From: an uncultured Candidatus Binatia bacterium
Lineage (GTDB): Bacteria > Desulfobacterota > Binatia > Bin18
Reading direction: 5' to 3'
DNA: 64,000 nt
Assembly: GCA_965200965.1 (NCBI GenBank)
Contig: OZ241744.1
Span: 2,144,001-2,208,000, forward strand
Part shown: in pieces, positions 2,667 through 58,602 of the stretch
Layout of the letters: each line of letters opens with the position of its first letter
Numbering within the stretch: position 1 is the first letter of the stretch
Program-made: the position numbers and the translations under genes
The notes under the pieces: model-generated
Told to the model about the DNA's origin: nothing
Database searches by the model: none
What the model saw: only the letters and a program-made list of their open reading frames with translations

Positions 2667-4493
2667 TTACACCTCGGATACGCGCTTATCGGCAAGGGCG
2701 GCCTGGATCGAGGTATCCATAATCCGCCGGGCGAACGGCTCGGTCGCCTCACTCAGGGCCTCGCTCAGTTCACGAATCCGATCAGAGTCCCGGCCCACGG
2801 TGGCCTCCTGGAGCGCCTTCACCGCGGCATCGATACGGTCGGCTTCGCCCTCCTGGAGGGCCGCGGCATTGTCACGGAGCGTCTTTTCGGTGGCGTTGAG
2901 GATGGTGTCGGCCTCAACCCGGGCCTCAATCAGCAACCGCCGGTTGAAATCCTCCTCGGCGTAATCGATCGATTCTTCGAGCAGTTGCTCAATCTCCTCG
3001 TCATTCAGACCGTAGGACGGCTTGACATCCACAGACCGCTCCCGGCCGGTCCGCAGATCAATTGCCGAAACATTCAGAATGCCGTTGGCGTCGATCATAA
3101 ACGCGACCTCAACCCGGGGGACGCCCGCCGGCTGAGGCTCAATGGGAATGGTAAATCGGGCCAGACTGCGACAGTCCCGGGCCAACTCGCGTTCTCCCTG
3201 GAGGACGTGGACCTCGACCGCGGTTTGGTCGTCCACCGCGGTGGTGAACATTTCTTTGACCATGGCCGGAATGGTGGTGTTACGCTCCAGGAGTTGGCTC
3301 ATCACCCCGCCCATGGTCTCAATACCGAGCGACAGCGGCACGACATCGAGCAGCAGCATGTCTTTGCGCCGCCCGGACAGGGTGTCGGCCTGAATGGCCG
3401 CGCCAAGGGCGACAACTTCGTCTGGATCGAGGTCGGTCAGCGGGGGACGCCCAAAGAACTCTGCCACCCGCTGTCGCACGAGAGGCATCCGGGTGGAGCC
3501 GCCAACCAGGACAACGGCATCAATATCAGCCGCTGCCACCCCGGCATCCCTGAGGGCTTGGCGACACGGCAGCAGGGTGCGGGCAATAATGTCATCCACC
3601 GCGGCCTCCAACTCCCGGCGACTGAGGGACCGCTCAAACTCCCCCCTGTCAGGAAGGCTGAGCGACAGGCTGGCCTGGCGATGGGTCGACAGGGTCTGTT
3701 TGGCCGCTCTGGCCGTGGCCTGCGCCCGGCTCAAGACCCGTGGGTCGGCCCACAGTTCTTCCGCCAATTCATCCAGCACAAAGCGCTGGGCAATGCGCTG
3801 GTCAATATCGTCCCCGCCCAGCCGGGTATCGCCGTTGGTTGCCACGACCTCAAAAATACCCGTGCGGAGGCGCAGAAGAGAGATATCAAAGGTCCCGCCA
3901 CCGAAATCATACACGGCAATGAGCCCTTCCTCTCGCTTATCCAGACCATAGGCGAGCGAGGCCGCGGTCGGCTCGTTGACCAAGCGAATGACCTCGAGGC
4001 CGGCCAGCCGACCGGCGTCTTTGGTGGCCTGACGCTGCGAGTCGTTAAAGTAGGCTGGAACCGTAATCACGACCTTGTTGATCGGTTCGTGCAGGGCTGC
4101 CTCAGCCCGTTCGCGGAGCGTGCGCAGAAGAGCGGCAGAAATCTCGGGCGGGGTATAGGAGCGGTCGTGTACGGCAAAGCGGACGAGGGCCTGCTTGTTT
4201 TCCTCCCCGGCGTCTCGGGCAAAAGCGTAGCGGCGACGGTCTTCGTCACTGACATGCTCCATCCCCAGGCCCATGAAACGCTTGACCGAGCGCAGCGTGG
4301 TCAGGGGATGGGCGGCTTCGCGCTCAACGGCCGGCTGGCCGACCAGGGCGCTTCCATCCGGGAGAAAGCTGACCACCGACGGGAGCAGGCTGCTGCCGGT
4401 GTGGGCGTCGGCCAGCACACGGGGGGTGTCTTCATGCGTATAGGCAATCAGACTATTGGTGGTGCCGAGATCAATACCGACTATGCGTTCCAC
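2667..4493 (-). CDS. hscA: Fe-S protein assembly chaperone HscA (Hsp70 family)
   Basis: [26 protein letters not shown] and VGGSTRMP motifs; VKPSYGL C-terminal HscA motif; between hscB and iscX. Confidence 0.93.
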
Positions 4494-5197
4494 GATATCC
4501 CGGTTTCCTTTTCCACATCTCGTAAGAGGGTCCGCAAATAGGCCAACTCGGACAGGACGCTTTTCAGTTCGGCCAGCAGAACAGACGACTCGCCTTTCAA
4601 AGACGAATCATCCTGACCGTTTCCAGGGGGAAGAGAGGATGATTCGCCTTTCTGGTTCTGCCAGTCAGAAAAGTGCCGAACCAGGGCGGCTTGTACGCCA
4701 GCCAGTCGCTCTTTGAGCTGGGTCTGTAGCCCGGTCAGGGCGCTGTCAACTTCGGCCTCTCTGCCCGCCCGGCGGGCGTCTCGGAGTTCTTCGAGCTGTT
4801 CCTGAACCGAAAAGACCACGCTCGCCAGCTGGGGCGGTACCCGGTTATTGTTCGTGCCGAGTTTCTCGCCGTGGAGTTCCAGCCAATACACCCCCCGCTG
4901 GACAGGATCGCGCAAGGTGCGGTAGGCACGGTTTACAAGCGCGCTATTGGTCAGGCTGGCCTCTTGTTCCTGGGCGCTGGCGGTCTGGTAGAGATCGGGA
5001 TGGAGACGCCGGCTCAACGCATAATAGCGGCTGGACAGGGCGGCTTCATCAAGCCTCAGATTCCGCTCCAGCCCCAAGACCCGGAAATAGTCAAGGTGGG
5101 CCGGGAGCGGCTGGATCGCCTCGCAGCGTGGACAAAAGGCCGTCACCAAGCCCTCGCTGTGGCAGTGCCAGCACAGCATCGTCTCAGGAGCAGCCAT
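4481..5197 (-). CDS. hscB: Co-chaperone HscB with N-terminal CxxC-CxxC domain
   Basis: J-domain HPD motif, [12 protein letters not shown]-terminal ELAYL; isc context. Confidence 0.93.
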
Positions 5198-5221
5198 GAA
5201 CGACACACAGGCCAGGAGCAG

Positions 5222-5563
5222 CTACACGGAGAAAGAACTGCCGCAGCCGCACGAGCGTTTGACGTTGGGATTATTGAGCTTGAAGCCGGAGTCCATCAGA
5301 CTTTCGGAGTAGTCGAGCTCGGTGCCCCGGAGATATAAAAAGCTTTTGCGGTCAACCAGAACTCTGGCATTGTCCCGCTCAAACACCCGGTCCCCCTTGC
5401 GTTCGGCGTCAAGGTTCATTTTGTACGACAGCCCCGAACACCCGCCGCCGACGACCTTCACCCGCAGGCCCTGTCCCTCCACATCCTGTTGACTGACCAG
5501 GGCCTGGATCTTCTGAACCGCATTGTCGCTGATGTCGATTTTCAGTTTTGCCGGCTGTGCCAT
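5222..5563 (-). CDS. iscA: Iron-sulfur cluster assembly accessory protein (IscA/HesB family)
   Basis: GGCSGLSY and NPNVKRSCGCGSSF motifs; ATG at 5563 with AAGGA RBS. Confidence 0.93.
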   Translation of the reverse strand: MAQPAKLKIDISDNAVQKIQALVSQQDVEGQGLRVKVVGGGCSGLSYKMNLDAERKGDRVFERDNARVLVDRKSFLYLRGTELDYSESLMDSGFKLNNPNVKRSCGCGSSFSV

Positions 5564-5577
5564 AGCGTTGTCCTTGC

Positions 5578-6798
5578 TCAGGCTGTTTTCCACTGCACAG
5601 ATTTGAGGTCAATACCCTCTCTGGCCATCTCATACAGGGGCGACAGTTCGCGCAGCCGCTGCACCACCTCAACGATGCGTCTGGCCACGCTATCGACTTC
5701 CTCCCCGGTATTGAAGCGGCCCAGTCCGAAGCGGATTGAGGTATGGGCCAACTCTTCCCCCACACCGAGCGCTTTCAACACATAGGAAGGCTCCAAGGTC
5801 GCTGAGGTACAGGCCGACCCGGAGGACAGGGCCACATCCTTGTTGATGCCCATCAGCAGCGATTCGCCCTCCACATACGAAAAGCTCAGGTTCAGGTTGC
5901 CGGGCAGGCGTTGGGTCGGATGTCCGTTCAGGTAGACTTCTTCCAGCTCCCGGGTAATGCCGTCGTGCAGGCGGGTGCGCAAACCGATGAGTGTGGCCGC
6001 TTCGGTCTCCAACTCCCGGCCGGCCAGCTGGCACGCCTTACCAAAGCCGACAATACCGGGCACATTCAGCGTACCGGACCGCATGCCACGCTCGTGCCCC
6101 CCCCCGTCGATGAGCGGGGTGAGCCGCACCCGCGGCCCTTTGGCCCGCACATAGAGGGCACCGCAGCCCTTGGGACCGTAGAGCTTGTGGGCCGTCATGG
6201 ACAACAGGTCAATGCCGTCCTGTTCAACATCCATCGGGATTTTGCCCACCCCCTGGGTGGCGTCGCAGTGAAAGAGCACCCCCCGGTCTTTGGCAATCCT
6301 GCCAATCTCACGAACCGGATGCAGGGTGCCGATTTCGTTGTTGGCGGCCATGATGGTAATGAGCACCGTTTTATCGGTGATGGCGTTTTCGACGTCGTCC
6401 GGGCTGACCATGCCGTATTGGTCAACCGGCAGATAGCTCACCTCGGCCTTGCCAGTCCGTTCCAAAGCCTTGCAGGGGTCAAGCACCGCCTTGTGTTCGG
6501 TCACACAGGTGATGATGTGATTGCCCTTCTCTCTATAGAACTCAGCCACGCCTTTGATGGCCAGATTGTCGGACTCTGTCGCCCCGCTGGTAAAGATGAT
6601 TTCCTTGGGCTTGGCCCCGATGGTCCGGGCAATCTGGCTGCGGGCAGTATCAACCGCCTCTTCAGCCGCCCAGCCAAAGGGATGGTTACGGCTGGCAGCA
6701 TTGCCAAAGTGCTCGCTGAAGTACGGCAGCATTGCCTCTAACACCCGTGGGTCCATTGGGGTAGTAGCCTGATTATCCATATAAATCGGCTGATGCAT
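5578..6798 (-). CDS. iscS: Cysteine desulfurase IscS
   Basis: [19 protein letters not shown] (PLP lysine), SSGSACTS catalytic Cys, SPLYEM...IDLKSVQW C-terminus. Confidence 0.97.
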
Positions 6799-6879
6799 GA
6801 CGATGCTCCTCACATGTTCGCAGGGGAGTCAGGTAAAGTAGACCTTACAGGTCAAAGATACGTCAGATCCGTGTGGCTG

Positions 6880-32403: not shown

Positions 32404-32892
32404 TCAGGCTGCCCCTTTCGGCGGCGCAGTACGTTCAATCAGCGTCCGCAAGGCGAGCATGGTTTCTGCATGGCGTTCGGCGTGGGCGAGCGTGGCTTCT
32501 GCATGGCGTTCGGCGTGGGTGCGCATGGCTTCCATGGTTTCGGCGTGGCGTTCGGCGTGGATGCGCATGGTTTCTGCATGGCGTTCGGCTTGAGTGCGCA
32601 TGGCTTCCATGGTTTCGGCGTGGCGTTCGGCGTGGGTACGCGTGGCTTCTGCATGGCGTTCGGCTTGGGTGCGCATAGCTTCCATGGTTTCGGCGTGGCG
32701 TTCGGCGTGCTGTTGTTCGCGGCGGTCGCCCATCCGTGCCATGTAGCGAATGCCGTAGCCGACGATCCCGGCCTGAATCAGCCCGACGGCCAGGGCAACC
32801 CAGGCCTGCAGATGGGCGGCCGTGACCGCGGCCTCCTGCAAGGCGAGCGTGGCCTGCTCAAAGGTGGTGAGGGTGCCAGCGGTGTCAAACAT
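32404..32892 (-). CDS. Membrane-anchored His-rich repeat protein, copy 4 (7 AERHAE units, 162 aa)
   Basis: One TM segment (WVALAVGLIQAGIVGYGI), [HQ]AERHAE repeats, LIERT terminus. Confidence 0.75.
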   Translation of the reverse strand: MFDTAGTLTTFEQATLALQEAAVTAAHLQAWVALAVGLIQAGIVGYGIRYMARMGDRREQQHAERHAETMEAMRTQAERHAEATRTHAERHAETMEAMRTQAERHAETMRIHAERHAETMEAMRTHAERHAEATLAHAERHAETMLALRTLIERTAPPKGAA

Positions 32893-32924
32893 CAGGCGTC
32901 GTCCAGGTGGTCTGCGTTCCTGTG

Positions 32925-33479
32925 TCAGGCTGCCCCTTTCGGCGGCGCGGTACGTTCAATCAGCGTCCGCAAGGCGAGCATGGCTTCTGCATGGCGTTCG
33001 GCGTGGGCGAGCGTGGCTTCTGCATGGCGTTCGGCTTGGGTGCGCATGGCTTCCATGGTTTCGGCGTGGCGTTCGGCGTGGGTACGCGTGGCTTCTGCAT
33101 GGCGTTCGGCTTGAGTGCGCATGGTTTCTGCATGGCGTTCGGCTTGAGTGCGCATGGCTTCCATGGTTTCGGCGTGGCGTTCGGCGTGGGTGCGCATGGT
33201 TTCTGCATGGCGTTCGGCGTGGGTGCGCGTGGCTTCTGCATGGCGTTCGGCTTGAGTGCGCATGGCTTCCATGGTTTCGGCGTGGCGTTCGGCGTGCTGT
33301 TGTTCGCGGCGGTCGCCCATCCGTGCCATGTAGCGAATGCCGTAGCCGACGATCCCGGCCTGAATCAGCCCGACGGCCAGGGCAACCCAGGCCTGCAGAT
33401 GGGCGGCCGTGACCGCGGCCTCCTGCAAGGCGAGCATGGCCTGCTCAAAGGTGGTGAGGGTGCCAGCGGTGTCAAACAT
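32925..33479 (-). CDS. Membrane-anchored His-rich repeat protein, copy 3 (9 units, 184 aa)
   Basis: Same architecture as the other three copies. Confidence 0.75.
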   Translation of the reverse strand: MFDTAGTLTTFEQAMLALQEAAVTAAHLQAWVALAVGLIQAGIVGYGIRYMARMGDRREQQHAERHAETMEAMRTQAERHAEATRTHAERHAETMRTHAERHAETMEAMRTQAERHAETMRTQAERHAEATRTHAERHAETMEAMRTQAERHAEATLAHAERHAEAMLALRTLIERTAPPKGAA

Positions 33480-33511
33480 CAGGCGTCGTCCAGGTGGTCT
33501 GCGTTCCTGTG

Positions 33512-33925
33512 TCAGGCTTCCCCTTTCGGCGGCGCAGTACGTTCAATCAGCGTCCGCAAGGCGAGCATGGCTTCTGCATGGCGTTCGGCGTGGGTGCGCG
33601 TGGCTTCTGCATGGCGTTCGGCTTGAGTGCGCATGGCTTCCATGGTTTCGGCATGGCGTTCGGCGTGGGCGAGCGTGGCTTCTGCATGGCGTTCGGCTTG
33701 AGTGCGCATGGCTTCCATGGTTTCGGCGTGGCGTTCGGCGTGCTGTTGTTCGCGGCGGTCGCCCATCCGTGCCATGTAGCGAATGCCGTAGCCGACGATC
33801 CCGGCCTGAATCAGCCCGACGGCCAGGGCAACCCAGGCCTGCAGATGGGCGGCCGTGACCGCGGCCTCTTGCAAGGCGAGCGTGGCCTGCTCAAAGGTGG
33901 TGAGGGTACCGGCGGTGTCAAACAT
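33512..33925 (-). CDS. Membrane-anchored His-rich repeat protein, copy 2 (5 units, 137 aa)
   Basis: Same architecture as the other three copies. Confidence 0.75.
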   Translation of the reverse strand: MFDTAGTLTTFEQATLALQEAAVTAAHLQAWVALAVGLIQAGIVGYGIRYMARMGDRREQQHAERHAETMEAMRTQAERHAEATLAHAERHAETMEAMRTQAERHAEATRTHAERHAEAMLALRTLIERTAPPKGEA

Positions 33926-33957
33926 CAGGCGTCGTCCAGGTGGTCTGCGTTCCTGTG

Positions 33958-34404
33958 TCAGGCTGCCCCTTTCGGCGGCGCAGTACGTTCAATCAGCGTC
34001 CGCAAGGCGAGCATGGTTTCTGCATGGCGTTCGGCGTGGGCGAGCGTGGCTTCTGCATGGCGTTCGGCTTGGGTGCGCATGGCTTCCATGGTTTCGGCGT
34101 GGCGTTCGGCGTGGGTGCGCATGGTTTCTGCATGGCGTTCGGCTTGAGTGCGCGTGGCTTCTGCATGGCGTTCGGCTTGGGTGCGCATGGCTTCCATGGT
34201 TTCGGCGTGGCGTTCGGCGTGCTGTTGTTCGCGGCGGTCGCCCATCCGTGCCATGTAGCGAATGCCGTAGCCGACGATCCCGGCCTGAATCAGCCCGACG
34301 GCCAGGGCAACCCAGGCCTGCAGATGGGCGGCCGTGACCGCGGCCTCTTGCAAGGCGAGCGTGGCCTGCTCAAAGGTGGTGAGGGTGCCGGCAGTGTCAA
34401 ACAT
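33958..34404 (-). CDS. Membrane-anchored His-rich repeat protein, copy 1 (6 units, 148 aa)
   Basis: Same architecture; only copy with unique upstream sequence. Confidence 0.75.
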   Translation of the reverse strand: MFDTAGTLTTFEQATLALQEAAVTAAHLQAWVALAVGLIQAGIVGYGIRYMARMGDRREQQHAERHAETMEAMRTQAERHAEATRTQAERHAETMRTHAERHAETMEAMRTQAERHAEATLAHAERHAETMLALRTLIERTAPPKGAA

Positions 34405-34473
34405 CAGGTACGTCCCGACCCGGCCTTTCTACCCTGTTTTATCTTGGTTATCCAGTAGCCAGTAGGCCGGCTC

Positions 34474-37237: not shown

Positions 37238-37957
37238 ATGACGAAACAGGAGAAAACAGCCAGCAACAGAGGAGAGGACTGGAATGTTGATATTACCGAA
37301 TTCTCCGTTGTTTTGCTTGCCACTTCCAACAATCCGTCAATTTTAAACCCGGATTTCCTGCAATATAACGACATCGTGGACGCGAGTCAGCAGATACAGG
37401 AGCCTCGTATTTCGACTCCAGCTTTTTCCCAAGTGATATTCCAGGACGGGCTCACCGTGACCGCCGACCCGGACCGCGTTATATTTGCGCAAACCAGAGG
37501 CAGATTGGCCACAGAAGACATTGTCTGCCCAGAAATAGCAAAACGCTATGTGAAGACAGTTCCGCACGTCACCTACCGCGCCGTCGGTATCAACCCGAAA
37601 GGCTTTAGACGCTCGGGGGACGGAGCACCTGACAGGGTAGCAAACGCTCTGACCGACAAAGGAGCATGGCTGTCATTCAAGGACACCATACCGGAAATTC
37701 AGCTCAAGGCGGTGTACCGTTATTCCGGACGGACAATTTTCCTGGACGTTATTGAAGCCAGACGAGAAGCTGACGGACGCCAAACTCCTGGAATACTGTT
37801 TCAGGCGAACATTCACCGTGATATCACAGAGACAAACCCGCAGAAGCGTACCGAGGGCTTGTTGTCTATTATCGACTCCTGGAAAGAAGACCTGTCCGAG
37901 TTTCATGTCCTGGTAAATAAGGTTCTACGAAAGGAAGCGGAATGCCCATTGAACTGA
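37238..37957 (+). CDS. Hypothetical protein, first gene of an AT-richer three-gene island (TIGR04255-like by motif)
   Basis: SVVL...NNPSILNPDFL, PHVTYRAVGINP, FQANIHRD; overlaps the next gene. Confidence 0.75.
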   Translation: MTKQEKTASNRGEDWNVDITEFSVVLLATSNNPSILNPDFLQYNDIVDASQQIQEPRISTPAFSQVIFQDGLTVTADPDRVIFAQTRGRLATEDIVCPEIAKRYVKTVPHVTYRAVGINPKGFRRSGDGAPDRVANALTDKGAWLSFKDTIPEIQLKAVYRYSGRTIFLDVIEARREADGRQTPGILFQANIHRDITETNPQKRTEGLLSIIDSWKEDLSEFHVLVNKVLRKEAECPLN

Positions 37958-38745
37958 ACTCTCAAACAGACAGGGCGAATATCACCACAACGGTTGAGAC
38001 TCCGCAGTATGATTGGGACCAATCTCTACTCTCCTGCGACCAGCCCACGACCCCAGACACAGCAATCATGCAGCGGCTTGGCTTGGCGTATGATCGAGGC
38101 CAACTTGGGTCTCGTGAGCCGGTTCCATGTGTTCCGAATTCCCCGACCCCTCTTTCCAGTTGGAGCGGGACAGAATATCAATCCGATAATACCCAGGCCG
38201 AAGAGCAATTAGCACAAAGGGCTTTGTCCATTCTTCCCCAGTTGATGCCCCAGGTAAACCGATTCCTCAGCGAGATCATCTCGGCCTGGACCACCCCCCA
38301 GTTGATGCCTCGGGTAGACCGACAGGCTTTCCCAGCAGCTCGGAACATCCTGGCTGAGTTTGTCGTGCGTGGTGCGAGCAGTTTCCCGGTCTCACTCGTC
38401 AACGCTTTGGGGGATCTCCAGGAAGTGACCGATGAGGCGTGTGAAGAAGGGCTCCCTCTACCGTCTGATGTGGCGCGACAAAACGCAGACCGCCTGTTGC
38501 GAAAAATGTATACAATCTCGCCCCGTCGTTTCGAGGTATATCCTACACAGGATGGCGAGATTGCCATTGACGCGCCGGATGGGCACGGGCGATCAGTGCT
38601 GTTGCTGTGCGATTCAGAAGGGGGGGCGCTGTGCCTCGTCAATATGAACGGGAACCATCGCCGCGCCCGGTATTCCACTACCGACACGCTTCCTGATGGC
38701 TTCGTGCGTGAAGCCTTGGCCGATCTGGAACGGCAGAGTGATTGA
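37942..38745 (+). CDS. Hypothetical protein, putative antitoxin-like
   Basis: Low-complexity N-half with a PQLMP duplication; globular C-half (EVYPTQDGEIAID); overlaps both neighbours. Confidence 0.7.
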   Translation: MPIELNSQTDRANITTTVETPQYDWDQSLLSCDQPTTPDTAIMQRLGLAYDRGQLGSREPVPCVPNSPTPLSSWSGTEYQSDNTQAEEQLAQRALSILPQLMPQVNRFLSEIISAWTTPQLMPRVDRQAFPAARNILAEFVVRGASSFPVSLVNALGDLQEVTDEACEEGLPLPSDVARQNADRLLRKMYTISPRRFEVYPTQDGEIAIDAPDGHGRSVLLLCDSEGGALCLVNMNGNHRRARYSTTDTLPDGFVREALADLERQSD

Positions 38746-39154
38746 ACCTGTGCATGTTCCCAAAGATATTGCACCCGAAGAGGAACTCGGACGTGGTGTG
38801 TTTTCGGAGAAACACAAGCACCGCGCTACACGCTCGCGTGTTCCGTTCCATGTGTTTCTGGAAAAACCGGGGAAGACCGAGATTTCTGTTGACAGGTTGA
38901 GGATCGCTCCACCGGGTGAAGCGCGTACAATTGCCGACAAAGTAGCTGCGGCGCGTAAGCGTGCTTTTCACGGATGGGCCTTCGTTATTGCTGAACGGGC
39001 TGTCAGCAATAAGCGGCGGGTGACTGCGAGTCCGCTTCCCGACAATCCCTATCACGCGGACATCATACTGCCGCAGCTTGCTGCCGATGATCGAGCAGAG
39101 CAGAAGCGACACGCTCAAGAATTGGCGGATGCTTCAGAGTGGCGTGGTCGTTGA
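38738..39154 (+). CDS. Hypothetical protein, putative ADP-ribosyltransferase-fold toxin
   Basis: E.LGR...F...EISVDR...P...NPYHADI pattern; GTG at 38738 overlaps the upstream stop. Confidence 0.65.
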   Translation: MIEPVHVPKDIAPEEELGRGVFSEKHKHRATRSRVPFHVFLEKPGKTEISVDRLRIAPPGEARTIADKVAAARKRAFHGWAFVIAERAVSNKRRVTASPLPDNPYHADIILPQLAADDRAEQKRHAQELADASEWRGR

Positions 39155-54167: not shown

Positions 54168-54818
54168 ATGTCCGCCGAACCCGGAATCTTTGAGATCATC
54201 TACTCCACCCGCGCCATGCGCCGGCTCAAACCAGACCCCATCCCGGAAGACACCCTGAAAAAAATTGTGGACGCCGGCATCCGCTGTGCCAGCGGCGGCA
54301 ATATGCAGGACTGGGCGTTCATCATCGTCCAGGACACAGAGCGCAAACGCTTTATCCGGGATTACTACTGGAATACCTGGCAGCAGATGCGGGGCAGCGG
54401 CACGCTCAACTACGACGATATCCCCGCCCCCCAGCAGCGGATGCTGAACGCCGCAGCCCACCTCGCCGCCCACATGGACGAAGCGCCGGCCCTGCTGCTG
54501 GCCTGCACCCGCGACCACTATCCGCCCATCGCCGTAATGGGCAATGAGCGGGCGAGTAAAATCGTCGTCTACGGCTCCATCTTTCCCGCGGTCCAGAACA
54601 TCCTGCTGGCCTGCCGCGCCCTCGGCGTGGGAGCAACCCTGACGACCATCCACTGCTTTTTTGAGGACCAGCTCAAGGCCCGGCTGCATGTCCCGGACGA
54701 TATGGAAGTCGCGGCCCTGATCCCGATGGGCTACCCCCAGGGCACGTTTGGTCCAGTCACCCGCAAGCCGGTTGAAGAGGTGATACACTGGGACGAGTGG
54801 GGCAATACCAGGGCGTGA
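54168..54818 (+). CDS. Nitroreductase family protein
   Basis: RAMRRLKPDPIP, ASGGNMQDW.F, QNILLACRALGVG, IPMGYP. Confidence 0.92.
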   Translation: MSAEPGIFEIIYSTRAMRRLKPDPIPEDTLKKIVDAGIRCASGGNMQDWAFIIVQDTERKRFIRDYYWNTWQQMRGSGTLNYDDIPAPQQRMLNAAAHLAAHMDEAPALLLACTRDHYPPIAVMGNERASKIVVYGSIFPAVQNILLACRALGVGATLTTIHCFFEDQLKARLHVPDDMEVAALIPMGYPQGTFGPVTRKPVEEVIHWDEWGNTRA

Positions 54819-54902: not shown

Positions 54903-56240
54903 ATGGCTCAAACCCGCGAGCAGAGCCGCCATACTGTCCGTGAGCTCTATGACTTTATCGGCGAGCACCTGTACCTGAACCGCCCTGACCTTGACCTTGG
55001 CGGCGAAAAGCTGAACTCGACCCTGCTGCTCAGCCTGCTGACCGCGCTGATTGGCGGCAAAGCCCTCATCATTGGCGAGCCGGGCCTGGGCAAGACCACC
55101 TCCGCCGAATATATCGCCTGCCTGTTCTACCGCATTCCGCTCGGCGTCATCTGGGGCAGCCAGGTCGCCGGCCACCCCGAGCAGACCGAGGAGAAAATTG
55201 TCGGCCGGCCAAATCTGGGCAAACTCAACCAGGGCGAAGAGCAGGTGGTGTGGAGCAATTTTGCCCAACTGCCGGTCAAGATCATTGACGAAATCAACCG
55301 CCTGCCCGAGACCAAACAAAGCCTGATTCTCGACGGCGTTGACCGGGGCAACTGGGAATACCTCAATCAATTCCTGCTCCACGATGAATACTGCCTGTTT
55401 GCCACCGCCAATTACCAGGACCCCGGCACCCACCCCTTGATCCCGCCCCTGCTCGACCGCTTTGATGTGATGATCGAGTCCAGACATCCCGGCGCAAACC
55501 TGGCCTTTTTCATCGGCCAACAGGACAACACAGACGCCCTGCTGCGGGACCCCGAACAAGAGCAAGCCTTGTATGCCGTGCTGAGCAATGGCCAGACGCC
55601 GGCAAACGCCGAGCTGGAAGCCGCCTGTCAGCGGTTTGCCGAGTGCTTGTCCGCTCAGCACGGCCTGCGCACCTTTGACAAGGCCGAGCGGCAGGCAATC
55701 CGTGCAGATATAGCCAGCCTCGGCTTCAGCCAGGACGCCAGCGCGTTCGCCCGGACAGCCCTGGCCGAGTTTTCGTTCTGCTGTTTATACGGACAAAAAC
55801 GCTCAAACGAAGAGTGCCCCGAAGGCTGCCACTACACCGGCTATCTGTGTTATCAGGTCCAGAACTGCGCCTCGAACCGCCTGCCGATTGCGCTGCGGCA
55901 CTACGCCCAGGCCCTGGTCTGGTTTCTGGGCGGCGAGCAGGTCAAGGCCGAACATGTGCGCTGGGTTCTGCCCTTTGTGCTCGCCCACCGCACCCAGTGG
56001 CGCGACGCCTATGTTGCCGCCCGGGAGCGGGAGGCGCGCCGTGACCCGCTGCCCCTCCATCTGGCCAAACAGGCCACCGCCGAGAGCTGGCGGCGGTTTG
56101 CCGAACAGCGCGACGACATCATGGGTGCGCTGGCGATTGCGGCCCGGATTCTGGCCGGCGAGGATGTGGCCCCAAGCCAGGGCGACCATCCGATCTTTGC
56201 CGAGATTCAGCGCGACTTGGGGATTGAGCCGGCATGGTAA
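54903..56240 (+). CDS. MoxR-like AAA+ ATPase with a Cys-rich C-terminal insert
   Basis: Walker A GEPGLGKTT, Walker B KIIDEINR, FATAN, LLDRF. Confidence 0.88.
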   Translation: MAQTREQSRHTVRELYDFIGEHLYLNRPDLDLGGEKLNSTLLLSLLTALIGGKALIIGEPGLGKTTSAEYIACLFYRIPLGVIWGSQVAGHPEQTEEKIVGRPNLGKLNQGEEQVVWSNFAQLPVKIIDEINRLPETKQSLILDGVDRGNWEYLNQFLLHDEYCLFATANYQDPGTHPLIPPLLDRFDVMIESRHPGANLAFFIGQQDNTDALLRDPEQEQALYAVLSNGQTPANAELEAACQRFAECLSAQHGLRTFDKAERQAIRADIASLGFSQDASAFARTALAEFSFCCLYGQKRSNEECPEGCHYTGYLCYQVQNCASNRLPIALRHYAQALVWFLGGEQVKAEHVRWVLPFVLAHRTQWRDAYVAAREREARRDPLPLHLAKQATAESWRRFAEQRDDIMGALAIAARILAGEDVAPSQGDHPIFAEIQRDLGIEPAW

Positions 56241-56992
56241 ACCCATTTGCCGAGTTCCAGACCTGCCGGCCCCGCCGGCGCGCCCTGCCGCTCGACCGTA
56301 TCGTTGCCATCCGGGACGCGCGGCTTGAACAGCTGATGGCCGGCTACACGGCCTATATCGCCCAGACCGAACTGGATTGGGACCGCATGCCCAACCGTCA
56401 TCTCACCGACCAGGCGTATGAAGCCGCGCTGCGCTGTGTGACCGGGCTTGTCTGCGACCCCGACGATATTGAGGATTTCTGTTTCAGCCTCGAACAGCTC
56501 CATACGCCGACGACTGCCCACGAGCTGCCGGATAACGCGCCCGGCCTGTGGGGCCTGTCCGGTCTGTACCTGTCGGCCCTGTGCAACCGGACCAAGGGCA
56601 GCCGACTGCAACTCCGCCTGCAATGGATGCCGGCGCGGCTCCATCTGCTGGGCTATAAGCTCCCGGCCGGCAAGCGGCTCAACATTGAGGGCCTGTGCGG
56701 CGACTTGCTCGGCATGGCCCTGGCCGGCGGAGAAATCAGCCTCCAGGGCAGCGCCTTCCATGGCGTCGGCTATGAACTGCAACAGGGCAGGATCACGATC
56801 TCCGACAACGCCGGAGAAGATGTCGGCCAGGGCATGGTCGGCGGAGAAATCCACATCCTTGGCGGTCGCATTCGAGGCGTTGGTCAGGTTTGTGGCGGCA
56901 GCGTCTATCTCGGCCAACGGCGCGTTGCTCCTGCTCCCATTGAGCCAGACGAGTGCCACACGAGCGCGGCCAGGGAGCGCCCACCCGCATGA
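56234..56992 (+). CDS. Hypothetical protein with C-terminal GXGXG beta-helix repeats (FwdC/GltB-C-like)
   Basis: GLYLSALCN, then repeated G..G..M.GGEI.I.G units; overlaps both neighbours. Confidence 0.8.
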   Translation: MVNPFAEFQTCRPRRRALPLDRIVAIRDARLEQLMAGYTAYIAQTELDWDRMPNRHLTDQAYEAALRCVTGLVCDPDDIEDFCFSLEQLHTPTTAHELPDNAPGLWGLSGLYLSALCNRTKGSRLQLRLQWMPARLHLLGYKLPAGKRLNIEGLCGDLLGMALAGGEISLQGSAFHGVGYELQQGRITISDNAGEDVGQGMVGGEIHILGGRIRGVGQVCGGSVYLGQRRVAPAPIEPDECHTSAARERPPA

Positions 56993-58602
56993 ACCTTCAC
57001 GCCACGCTCGCCGCGGTCTGGCCCCGCGCCCGACGCAAACATTTTTTTCCCGAGCTGCCCCGGCCACGCATTACCGACGGCCTCAGCCAGGAAGCGGTGG
57101 AAGTGCGTCAGCGACAGATCATTCTGAACCCCAGCTTTTGTCAGCAGCTCGCCGAGCACCTGCCGGTCAAGGCCGTGATCGAAGCCCTGCTTGACCACGG
57201 CATTGCCCACTACACCCGCTGCCCGTGGGATGTTGCCACCCATCTGCGGCTGTACGCCGCGGCCAAACGCGAACTCGGCCGCCGCGATTACGCCCAGCGG
57301 GCAAGCGATATTTTTATCGACATAGTGGTCAACACCCACTGTGTCAAAGACTTTGACACCGCCCTGCCCCAGGTATATCGTCACCTCCAGCGCCTCAGCG
57401 GTCGCCCGCTCGACCGGCTGACCGTCGCCTTATACAGCCTGATGTGGGGCATGGACCTTGAGGCCAGCGGCCCCGAGCCGCTGTTGCGACGCTTGGCGCG
57501 GATTCCGTATCTGGACCGCGGCCGCTGGGAAGAGAGCATCCGGCGCTTCTGCCGACTGATCCAGCCAGTCCTTGACGAAGAACGCCGGCACTCAGAGATT
57601 CTGCCCACCGCCCTGCTCGGCCGCCACGGCCTGTCGAGTCATGCCCCCAACGAGGTCGAACGCGGCCTGCGGACCTTTGCCCTCCAGGTAGACAATCCGC
57701 GCGAGTTTCGGACCACGATTGCCGATTTTGACGGGGAACTGGCAGCCCAGGGCCACGCCGAAGAACAGGAGGGCATGGGCTGGGGCCGGGGCGAGCGGAT
57801 TGACACCGGCCTGCTCTACTACATGAAGCTGACCGAGCAGTACCAGCTGCCCGTATCCGCTGCGCCGCTGCACCGGAGCAGTTCCTCAGACCCGCATATG
57901 CATACCCCGTGGGAGCTGAGCAAGCCGCTTCAAGACCTGGATGTGTGGACCAGTTTTGGCAAGCTCCTCCCCGGTCTGTCCCAAGCCTGGCTGTACCAGA
58001 ACGGCCTGCTCTACGGTCGCCGGGAGGGCGTGCCCGACTGTATCATCATCCTCGACTCCTCGGGCAGCATGGCCAACCCGCGCTATCTGCTGAGTCACGC
58101 GATTGTCGGTGCCGGCTGTGCCGCGGACGCCTATCTGCGCGCCGGTGCCGAGGTGGCGGTCTACAATTTCAGCGACGTGCCGGCCGGTGACAAGCTGGTG
58201 CTCGGCTTCAGCAGGGAACGCAAGCCGGTCTATCAGGCCCTATGCCGCTATTTTGGCGGGGGTACGGTCTTTTCGTTTGAAGAACTCGACGAGCTGCTGC
58301 GGCTCGTTGCGCACGACCGGCCCGATATCTTCTTTATTACCGATATGCAGATTCCCGACCTGCACAGCCTGATTGCCTATCTGTCAGAATTGACCGGCCG
58401 GATTACCGCGGTGCATATCGGCGAGACCGACTCGGCCGCGGTGTTCAAAAAAGAAACCGCCGGCTGGAGAAACGCCCAGGTGTTTTCTGTCCGGCGGCGG
58501 GAGGATATCCCGCGCATTGTGCTGGGTCAGGTCAAAACCTGCCTGGGCTACGGCCAGAGCGCAAAGGGTGAGGCAGATACTTGTCGGCTTACGCTTCGCT
58601 AA
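56989..58602 (+). CDS. VWA-domain protein with an N-terminal metallopeptidase-like region
   Basis: MIDAS DSSGS...GGGT...ITD; N-terminal HGIAH..CPWD and DIVVN; ATGA overlap with the upstream stop. Confidence 0.85.
   Translation: MNLHATLAAVWPRARRKHFFPELPRPRITDGLSQEAVEVRQRQIILNPSFCQQLAEHLPVKAVIEALLDHGIAHYTRCPWDVATHLRLYAAAKRELGRRDYAQRASDIFIDIVVNTHCVKDFDTALPQVYRHLQRLSGRPLDRLTVALYSLMWGMDLEASGPEPLLRRLARIPYLDRGRWEESIRRFCRLIQPVLDEERRHSEILPTALLGRHGLSSHAPNEVERGLRTFALQVDNPREFRTTIADFDGELAAQGHAEEQEGMGWGRGERIDTGLLYYMKLTEQYQLPVSAAPLHRSSSSDPHMHTPWELSKPLQDLDVWTSFGKLLPGLSQAWLYQNGLLYGRREGVPDCIIILDSSGSMANPRYLLSHAIVGAGCAADAYLRAGAEVAVYNFSDVPAGDKLVLGFSRERKPVYQALCRYFGGGTVFSFEELDELLRLVAHDRPDIFFITDMQIPDLHSLIAYLSELTGRITAVHIGETDSAAVFKKETAGWRNAQVFSVRRREDIPRIVLGQVKTCLGYGQSAKGEADTCRLTLR

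Follow-up and report, generated by a model that had tools for sequence, protein, structure and literature searches.

The three genes and their parts

The window analysed here is a stretch of 64,000 nucleotides from an uncultured Candidatus Binatia bacterium (assembly GCA_965200965.1, contig OZ241744.1, positions 2,144,001 to 2,208,000 of the forward strand). Three genes follow one another near its end; they encode a MoxR-class AAA+ ATPase (A), a protein with a GXGXG beta-helix (B) and a protein with a von Willebrand factor A (VWA) domain (V). An earlier reading of the sequence alone, hereafter the sequence-only reading, had described three translationally coupled genes with these identities. 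Both statements hold: the coordinates and frames are right, A and B overlap by 7 nt, and the junction of B and V is ATGA. In window coordinates, the parts are the following.

54903..56240, plus strand: gene A, MoxR-class AAA+ ATPase of 445 amino acids, a family of its own (Pfam scan, fold search, model)
55074..55097, plus strand: Walker A of A, residues 58-65 (G58 and K64 in 112/115 alignment rows, the remaining 3 being gaps)
55287..55292, plus strand: Walker B of A, D129-E130 (alignment)
55779..55868, plus strand: Cys-rich insert in the lid of A, with C293, C305, C309, H310, C316 and C322 (alignment)
56234..56992, plus strand: gene B, 252 amino acids, with N-terminal motif, helical cap and FwdC/GltB-type GXGXG beta-helix
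56234..56296, plus strand: NPFxEF...LP motif at the N-terminus of B, putative docking tag (duplicated in 17/167 B open reading frames, ORFs)
56989..58602, plus strand: gene V, 537 amino acids, with metallopeptidase-like N-domain, helical linker, conserved flexible segment and VWA domain
57196..57210, plus strand: H70-G-x-x-H74 of V, an HExxH motif with Glu replaced by Gly; D111 is the likely third metal ligand
57853..58023, plus strand: residues 289-345 of V, a conserved low-confidence segment before the VWA core; putative pore-inserting finger (position as in NorD and CobT)
[quoted passage not shown]

V ends 53 nt from the stop of a convergent downstream gene, which was named nuoN from its sequence and its place in a nuo-like run, with no family scan. 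The G+C content of the trio matches the remainder of the window, and scans for promoters and terminators at the trio gave counts at chance level. Orthologues under purifying selection exist for all three ORFs, so the trio is not a product of chance. None of the three proteins has a 19-residue hydrophobic stretch above 1.9, and all are therefore likely to be soluble. A nitroreductase gene lies 84 bp upstream on the same strand (54168-54818); it is found near the trio only in loci L011-L015.

A exceeds the Pfam cut-offs for AAA_5, AAA and AAA_lid_2 and carries Walker A, Walker B, sensor 1, an arginine finger and sensor 2, with G58/K64, D129/E130, N170, R186 and R326 almost invariant over the 115 alignment rows. 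Against NCBIfam it scores far below every cut-off, the chelatase families included. The structure model (mean predicted local distance difference test score, pLDDT, 79; predicted template modelling score 0.86) has its best Foldseek matches in 2r44, BchI/ChlI, MCM and RavA. Residues ~86-117 form a conserved insert with two short strands, a possible helix-2 insert, in which residues 86-95 have a pLDDT below 50. A word search returned 911 matches and a profile search 584 clusters at 50% identity; the best 150 of these 584 were listed, of which 114 full-length sequences were used and 36 were dropped for length. Among the matches listed, two long ones score above 570 bits and the other full-length ones at most 430. 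The bacterial A subfamily is therefore tight and sits within a far more diverse radiation.

The sequence-only reading had also pointed to a cysteine cluster in A. The motif C-C-x10-C-x3-C-H-x5-C is indeed present, at residues 293-316 just before the sensor-2 residue R326, and C293, C305, C309, H310, C316 and C322 do not vary among 39 close relatives, 27 of which also keep the second Cys, C294. As a core functional metal site the cluster is weak, because only 36 of the 114 distant representatives keep the four-Cys pattern; in 59 the insert holds one Cys or none. Model confidence is low at residues 297-310 inside it. Judging from this pattern of conservation, the insert is likely a lineage-specific structural metal site that serves something other than the core function.

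For B, the predicted helical N-terminus, GLYLSALCN motif and FwdC/GltB-type repeats were all recovered. The FwdC and GXGXG matches of B itself are weak and below cut-off (38.2 bits for TIGR03122, FwdC/FmdC, at a cut-off of 130.65), and the profile of the B family matches solved FwdC chains with E 1e-27 in the C-terminal repeats only. B thus shares beta-helix repeats with FwdC/FhcC and with the GXGXG domain of glutamate synthase, but it comes without a FwdA partner, and its N-terminal half is its own: the NPFxEF...LP motif, a helical cap and a G-x-Y-x-SALCN helix. In the cap, D78 is acidic in 66/68 sequences and E80 in 65/68. A word search with B found 20 relatives. The NPFxEF peptide is a putative docking tag of B; the 17 ORFs in which NPFxxF is duplicated in tandem all come from Latescibacterota loci. 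The B proteins of the window's genus have lost the conserved cap stretch of the family around residues 45-62, and they evolve faster than A and V.

In V, the MIDAS (D356-S358-S360-T426-D452) is intact, as had been claimed, being identical in all 68 aligned sequences. The model (pLDDT 80.6) consists of one helix, three strands, a helical bundle, a linker, the low-confidence segment 289-345 and the VWA domain, a layout that resembles CobT and NorD. The topology of the front part fits the description of the CobT N-domain, which is peptidase M48C-like in the accessible part of the source (10.64898/2026.07.21.739949); the match lists from the PDB are filled by the VWA domain. With NorD, 200 residues of the model align (Z 14.5, root-mean-square deviation 3.5), whereas most plain VWA domains align over ~165-170. 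Conservation of residues 301-345 is on a level with that of the VWA core (0.72 vs 0.70). The best viral fold matches cover V over its full length and are CobT-like and metallopeptidase-VWA proteins, with low template modelling scores.

The active HExxH of a zincin is absent from the window's V, which has Gly in place of the catalytic Glu. The middle residue of HxxxH is Gly or Ala in 64/68 sequences and Glu in 4/68, all of a second subfamily; the Glu is present too in V of the distant metagenomic loci L108, L109 and L170. NCBIfam had no model that matched V, and a PDB sequence search with the V profile gave chance coiled-coil matches only. PF13203 (DUF2201_N) was absent from the families matched by the 68 V members at E 0.1, and none of 61 genomes contained a DUF2201_N protein over the cut-off.

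Inheritance of the trio

A scan of GTDB genomes found 340 loci, the best 80 of which were examined, and a scan of metagenomes found 171, again with the best 80 examined; distant loci among the latter are only L108, L109, L135 and L170. The sequence-only reading had made conservation of the middle gene with the AAA/VWA pair a point to be checked, and the gene is conserved: B directly follows A in 76 of the 80 GTDB loci. The order A-B-V is complete in 72 of them, a contig ends after A-B in 4 and after A in 1, and 3 have no B after A. The corresponding numbers in the metagenomes are 56 complete, 10 ended after A-B, 11 ended after A and 3 with no B after A. One locus has a repeat-rich coiled-coil ORF inserted between A and B (L208:5304-5951, genome G416).

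The three GTDB exceptions are related Latescibacterota genomes in which B and V are adjacent elsewhere, probably the result of one event. A second bacterial subfamily (L097-L100, in genomes G070, G167, G040 and G227), with an intact HExxH in V, has the order A-V-B in L098-L100; in its unrelated one-contig genome G070 the V-B pair lies ~330 kb from A. G040 and G227 carry both bacterial subfamilies. Since A has moved away in two independent splits while B stayed with V, B is likely the direct partner of V. This is what would be expected if B binds V as CobN binds CobT: in the accessible parts of the sources, CobN sits between the two domains of CobT without touching CobS (10.64898/2026.07.21.739949, 10.64898/2026.10.09.757910).

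Presence and absence follow the same pattern. When 61 Latescibacterota genomes were scanned for B, A was found in 16/16 of the B-positive and 0/12 of the B-negative genomes tested, which are kin and thus not independent. Among the phylum's 301 genomes, V occurs in 41, with one close-type copy in each of 39; it is fixed in families at 10/10, 5/5 and 6/6 and kept in genomes of 1.5-1.9 Mb. In the window's family, B is present in 6/7 other genomes of its own genus, the seventh being an assembly in fragments, in which A lies at the end of a contig, and in 0/27 genomes of the sister genus g8. Compared with five congeners, A has a ratio of nonsynonymous to synonymous substitution rates (dN/dS) of 0.05-0.13, B of 0.17-0.29, V of 0.08-0.20 and nuoN of 0.05-0.18. 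Medians over 27 other pairs are 0.051, 0.054 and 0.060 for A, B and V. Values reach at most 0.35 in bacterial pairs and the layout is constant there; archaeal loci are too few to judge. The trio is thus co-inherited in several uncultured bacterial groups, in which housekeeping genes surround it; these vary from lineage to lineage, with none common to trio loci across lineages.

These data bear on the reading in which B would be a passenger, an independent subunit like FwdC or GltB that is co-transcribed with an ordinary two-part MoxR-VWA chaperone. Its beta-helix does match FwdC and GltB, and A and V occur without B in the DNA examined at L108 and L170. Nevertheless we consider a passenger very improbable: B is retained in two gene orders and through both splits, it co-occurs with A genome by genome, and a search of the window's genome gave no FwdA. 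B also has its conserved cap, and the alignment of a beta-helix protein at L109 to the B family (E 2.6e-5) starts at the N-terminal motif and extends through the cap.

According to another reading, the trio would be a chaperone for metal insertion into, or repair of, a separate metalloenzyme, complex I or another Fe-S, Mo or W enzyme, with B as specificity adaptor and the Cys insert as metal site. NorQD inserts iron into NO reductase (PMC13036017, PMC9976466) and CobST powers cobalt chelation (10.64898/2026.07.21.739949) in the accessible parts of these papers, both with the same kind of parts. The trio converges on nuoN, genes of the NuoH family are present in 5/5 small trio-positive genomes, the Cys residues of A are invariant in the bacterial subfamily, and B resembles FwdC. 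We still regard this reading as rather unlikely. Genes of the nuo type adjoin the trio in 5 of the 80 GTDB loci only (L011-L015), all close kin of the window, and NuoN orthologues with 70-75% identity are present in 5/5 genomes of g8, which has no B. Among the trio-positive genomes, FwdA and V-ATPase subunit C were over the cut-off in 0/5 and Rubisco was found in 0/5. The trio loci have no neighbour in common and more than half of the distant A proteins carry a single Cys or none in the insert.

The link to complex I through nuoN, suggested by the sequence-only reading, is therefore not upheld, and complex I as a required client was rejected: the nuoN adjacency is genus-specific and g8 has NuoN without B. 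Complex I may yet be an optional client, because the small trio-positive genomes do have NuoH-family genes. The metal-cofactor insertion that had been proposed is still a possible role, but the search for a metalloenzyme client brought up none. Among the clusters of trio neighbours there is no recurrent tetrapyrrole gene, and no client enzyme gene emerged as a common neighbour or, for Rubisco, in the five genomes; norB and cobN were not searched genome-wide.

A third reading takes the trio for a switch in defence or conflict, in which B would be the sensor or the effector. The accessible part of one paper (PMC7159879) describes four ternary MoxR-vWA conflict systems, and that of another (10.64898/2026.09.08.750141) a MoxR-vWA pathway that senses epibionts in Actinobacteria. 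It would suit such a role that the trio is all-or-none between sister genera, that archaeal-type loci have paralogues and variable cargo, and that B evolves a little faster than A in the window's genus. Yet there is one close-type copy per genome, retained by whole families and in small genomes, all three genes have a median dN/dS of 0.05-0.06, and the neighbours are housekeeping genes; taken together, this speaks against these bacteria having a fast-evolving conflict system. No effector domain was found fused or adjacent, the best PADLOC match had E 0.024, and there was no plasmid match. Three scans of viral contigs gave no family member and one weak partial AAA match; the INPHARED phages were not searched. 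The role in biological conflict that had been suggested is thus distinctly unlikely for these bacteria.

Archaeal-type relatives and their putative tags

An archaeal origin of the trio had been suggested from the sequence, and it is plausible. L108 carries a gene for archaeal NAC and L170 one for TYW1, both over the cut-off, and one distant A cluster is named Woesearchaeota. Atlas neighbours, which serve as leads only, include Nanobdellota clusters for A and Altarchaeota, Microcaldota and Nanobdellota clusters for B. A tree of 46 rows places the two bacterial subfamilies separately between archaeal and unnamed rows, and a single clade of both is rejected (p 9e-12 in the approximately unbiased test), the tree being a quick one with a simple model and the test having been run after the tree was seen. 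The trio was thus probably taken from DPANN-type archaea. Transfer from archaea to bacteria is the likely direction, short of shown because most rows of the tree have no taxon.

Two of the distant loci show further proteins with related N-termini. At L109, the domain of which is not verified, two tandem beta-helix paralogues lie directly before A (L109:5201-6897), one of them being the protein that aligns to the B family. They share 25 of their first 30 residues, compared with 53 of 159 aligned in the rest. At L170 (L170:1840-5889), V is surrounded by a methyltransferase and by two ORFs of unknown type with a common N-terminal motif. The bodies of this ORF pair are unrelated, and their N-terminal match was equalled by 0/5000 shuffles and 0/3838 other N-termini.

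A proposed remodelling machine and its known counterparts

No description of the trio was found in the literature, where coverage was thin for subscription journals and did not extend to the supplements of PMC7159879 and PMC7824862. The proposal of an undescribed three-component system is in keeping with this. The alternative, a match to an already characterised MoxR subfamily operon, was not found: for NorQD, CbbQO, RavA-ViaA and CobST, no NCBIfam model came near its cut-off with A, and no family-specific Pfam model matched at E 1.

The closest likeness is to CobSTN. In the accessible parts of the sources it too has three parts, with an adaptor built of a peptidase-like N-domain, linker, shaft and VWA domain, and its third part CobN contacts the adaptor, not the ATPase (10.64898/2026.07.21.739949, 10.64898/2026.10.09.757910). 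The third part is there a 137-kDa chelatase and here a beta-helix protein of 250 amino acids, and A is longer than CobS, carries the Cys insert and stays far under the chelatase cut-offs. NorQ-NorD, like CbbQ-CbbO, RavA-ViaA and CoxD-CoxE, combines a MoxR-class ATPase with a MIDAS-bearing VWA partner. The V model aligns with NorD beyond the VWA core, and a finger before the VWA domain enters the pore of the ring in NorD (PMC13036017, PMC9976466) and CobT (10.64898/2026.10.09.757910), again as far as the accessible texts go. The trio differs from this group in that no gene for a client enzyme lies nearby, a third gene is conserved and no family model matches.

The ternary conflict systems likewise consist of a MoxR ATPase, a vWA protein and a conserved third component, proposed to be restructured by the pair; in the accessible part of the paper this component is VMAP, iSTAND, FtsH or a beta-propeller, and none has a beta-helix (Kaur et al. 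2020, PMC7159879). In contrast, the third component here is a GXGXG beta-helix, no variable effector is fused to V, and the genes are under strong purifying selection with family-wide retention. In jumbo phages, a vWA domain fused to an N-terminal metallopeptidase domain occurs beside a MoxR ATPase (accessible part of PMC7824862), and the fold of V matches such phage proteins. The trio is cellular, however; the V subfamily has lost the catalytic Glu, the partner is a beta-helix protein, and no member of the family was seen on viral contigs.

The trio is a strongly conserved three-part variant of the MoxR-VWA motor that lies outside those families and most likely works like CobSTN or NorQD. Our preferred account, held with moderate confidence, is that of one ATP-driven remodelling machine in which a hexamer of A would drive V, and V would grip B as its dedicated client or third tier. 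B as client or adaptor, as the sequence-only reading had it, is thus the most likely role. Following NorQD and CobSTN, the front domain of V would dock on the small domain of A, and the conserved flexible segment 289-345 of V, the putative finger, would thread the pore of the A ring. ATP hydrolysis would then move the MIDAS, which would hold an acidic residue of B, with D78 and E80 as candidates. The tags suggest that the N-terminal NPFxEF peptide of B may serve to recruit it, and the simplest site would be the groove of the metallopeptidase-like domain of V. Because the catalytic Glu is gone, this domain would bind here and not cut. The machine would come from DPANN-type archaea, where it would stand beside several tagged proteins, and the window's bacteria would have kept a stably inherited version with a single client.

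Beyond this, we put forward a wider reading tentatively, as possible and somewhat doubtful. The machine would be a tag-reading, ATP-driven protein-processing device of DPANN archaea, in which the zinc-peptidase domain of V recognises, and in the active HExxH form clips, a short N-terminal cargo tag. The AAA+ ring would pull V to mature or release the cargo (beta-helix arrays and others), which possibly acts on hosts. Bacteria would have captured it at least twice, and the window would hold a non-cutting one-client motor.

Several observations count against these accounts. The splits are only two events, and neighbouring genes may owe their position to joint transcription and not to binding of their products. 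The Z-score of NorD to V is tied with those of Rpn10 and other VWA domains, the finger is placed by its position with model confidence there below 50, and no Pfam peptidase family matched any of the 68 V sequences at E 0.1. On the archaeal side, B has an Atlas score under the recognition level, and no B stands beside A and V in the DNA examined at L108 and L170. The origin also rests on few rows, because only one cluster among 30 distant representatives has an archaeal name; one other is named 'bacterium' and the remainder carry no taxon. As to the tags, the bacterial tag profile found no second tagged protein in the window's genome and missed the tags of L109 and L170, which bear a weak likeness to the bacterial tag (scores as high arose in 2, 3 and 12 of 200 shuffles). 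The L170 pair was picked by eye before testing, and the N-terminal likeness at L109 could stem from gene conversion or recent duplication.

The client of most MoxR-VWA pairs is unknown. Here a likely client sits in the operon with a candidate docking tag, which puts substrate recognition within reach of experiments on three soluble proteins and a handful of point mutants. The natural HExxH and HGxxH versions allow a test of whether the peptidase-like front domain, which CobT has too, was at one time a functioning protease. To our knowledge, the means by which DPANN archaea act on their hosts are largely unknown; if the archaeal side is true, it would give a function to the expanded beta-helix gene sets of these archaea.

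Elsewhere in the window, a gene run at 2667-6813, ~48 kb from the trio, resembles hscA, hscB, iscA and iscS by sequence (no scan) and is what we take to be an ordinary Fe-S assembly cluster. Three ORFs of unknown type at 37238-39154 occupy a stretch of lower G+C content (0.55) that was possibly acquired. At 32452-34408 there are nested tandem repeats with periods of 33, 75, 108 and 446 bp, with 86-96% matches in the best arrays and a strong AT skew.

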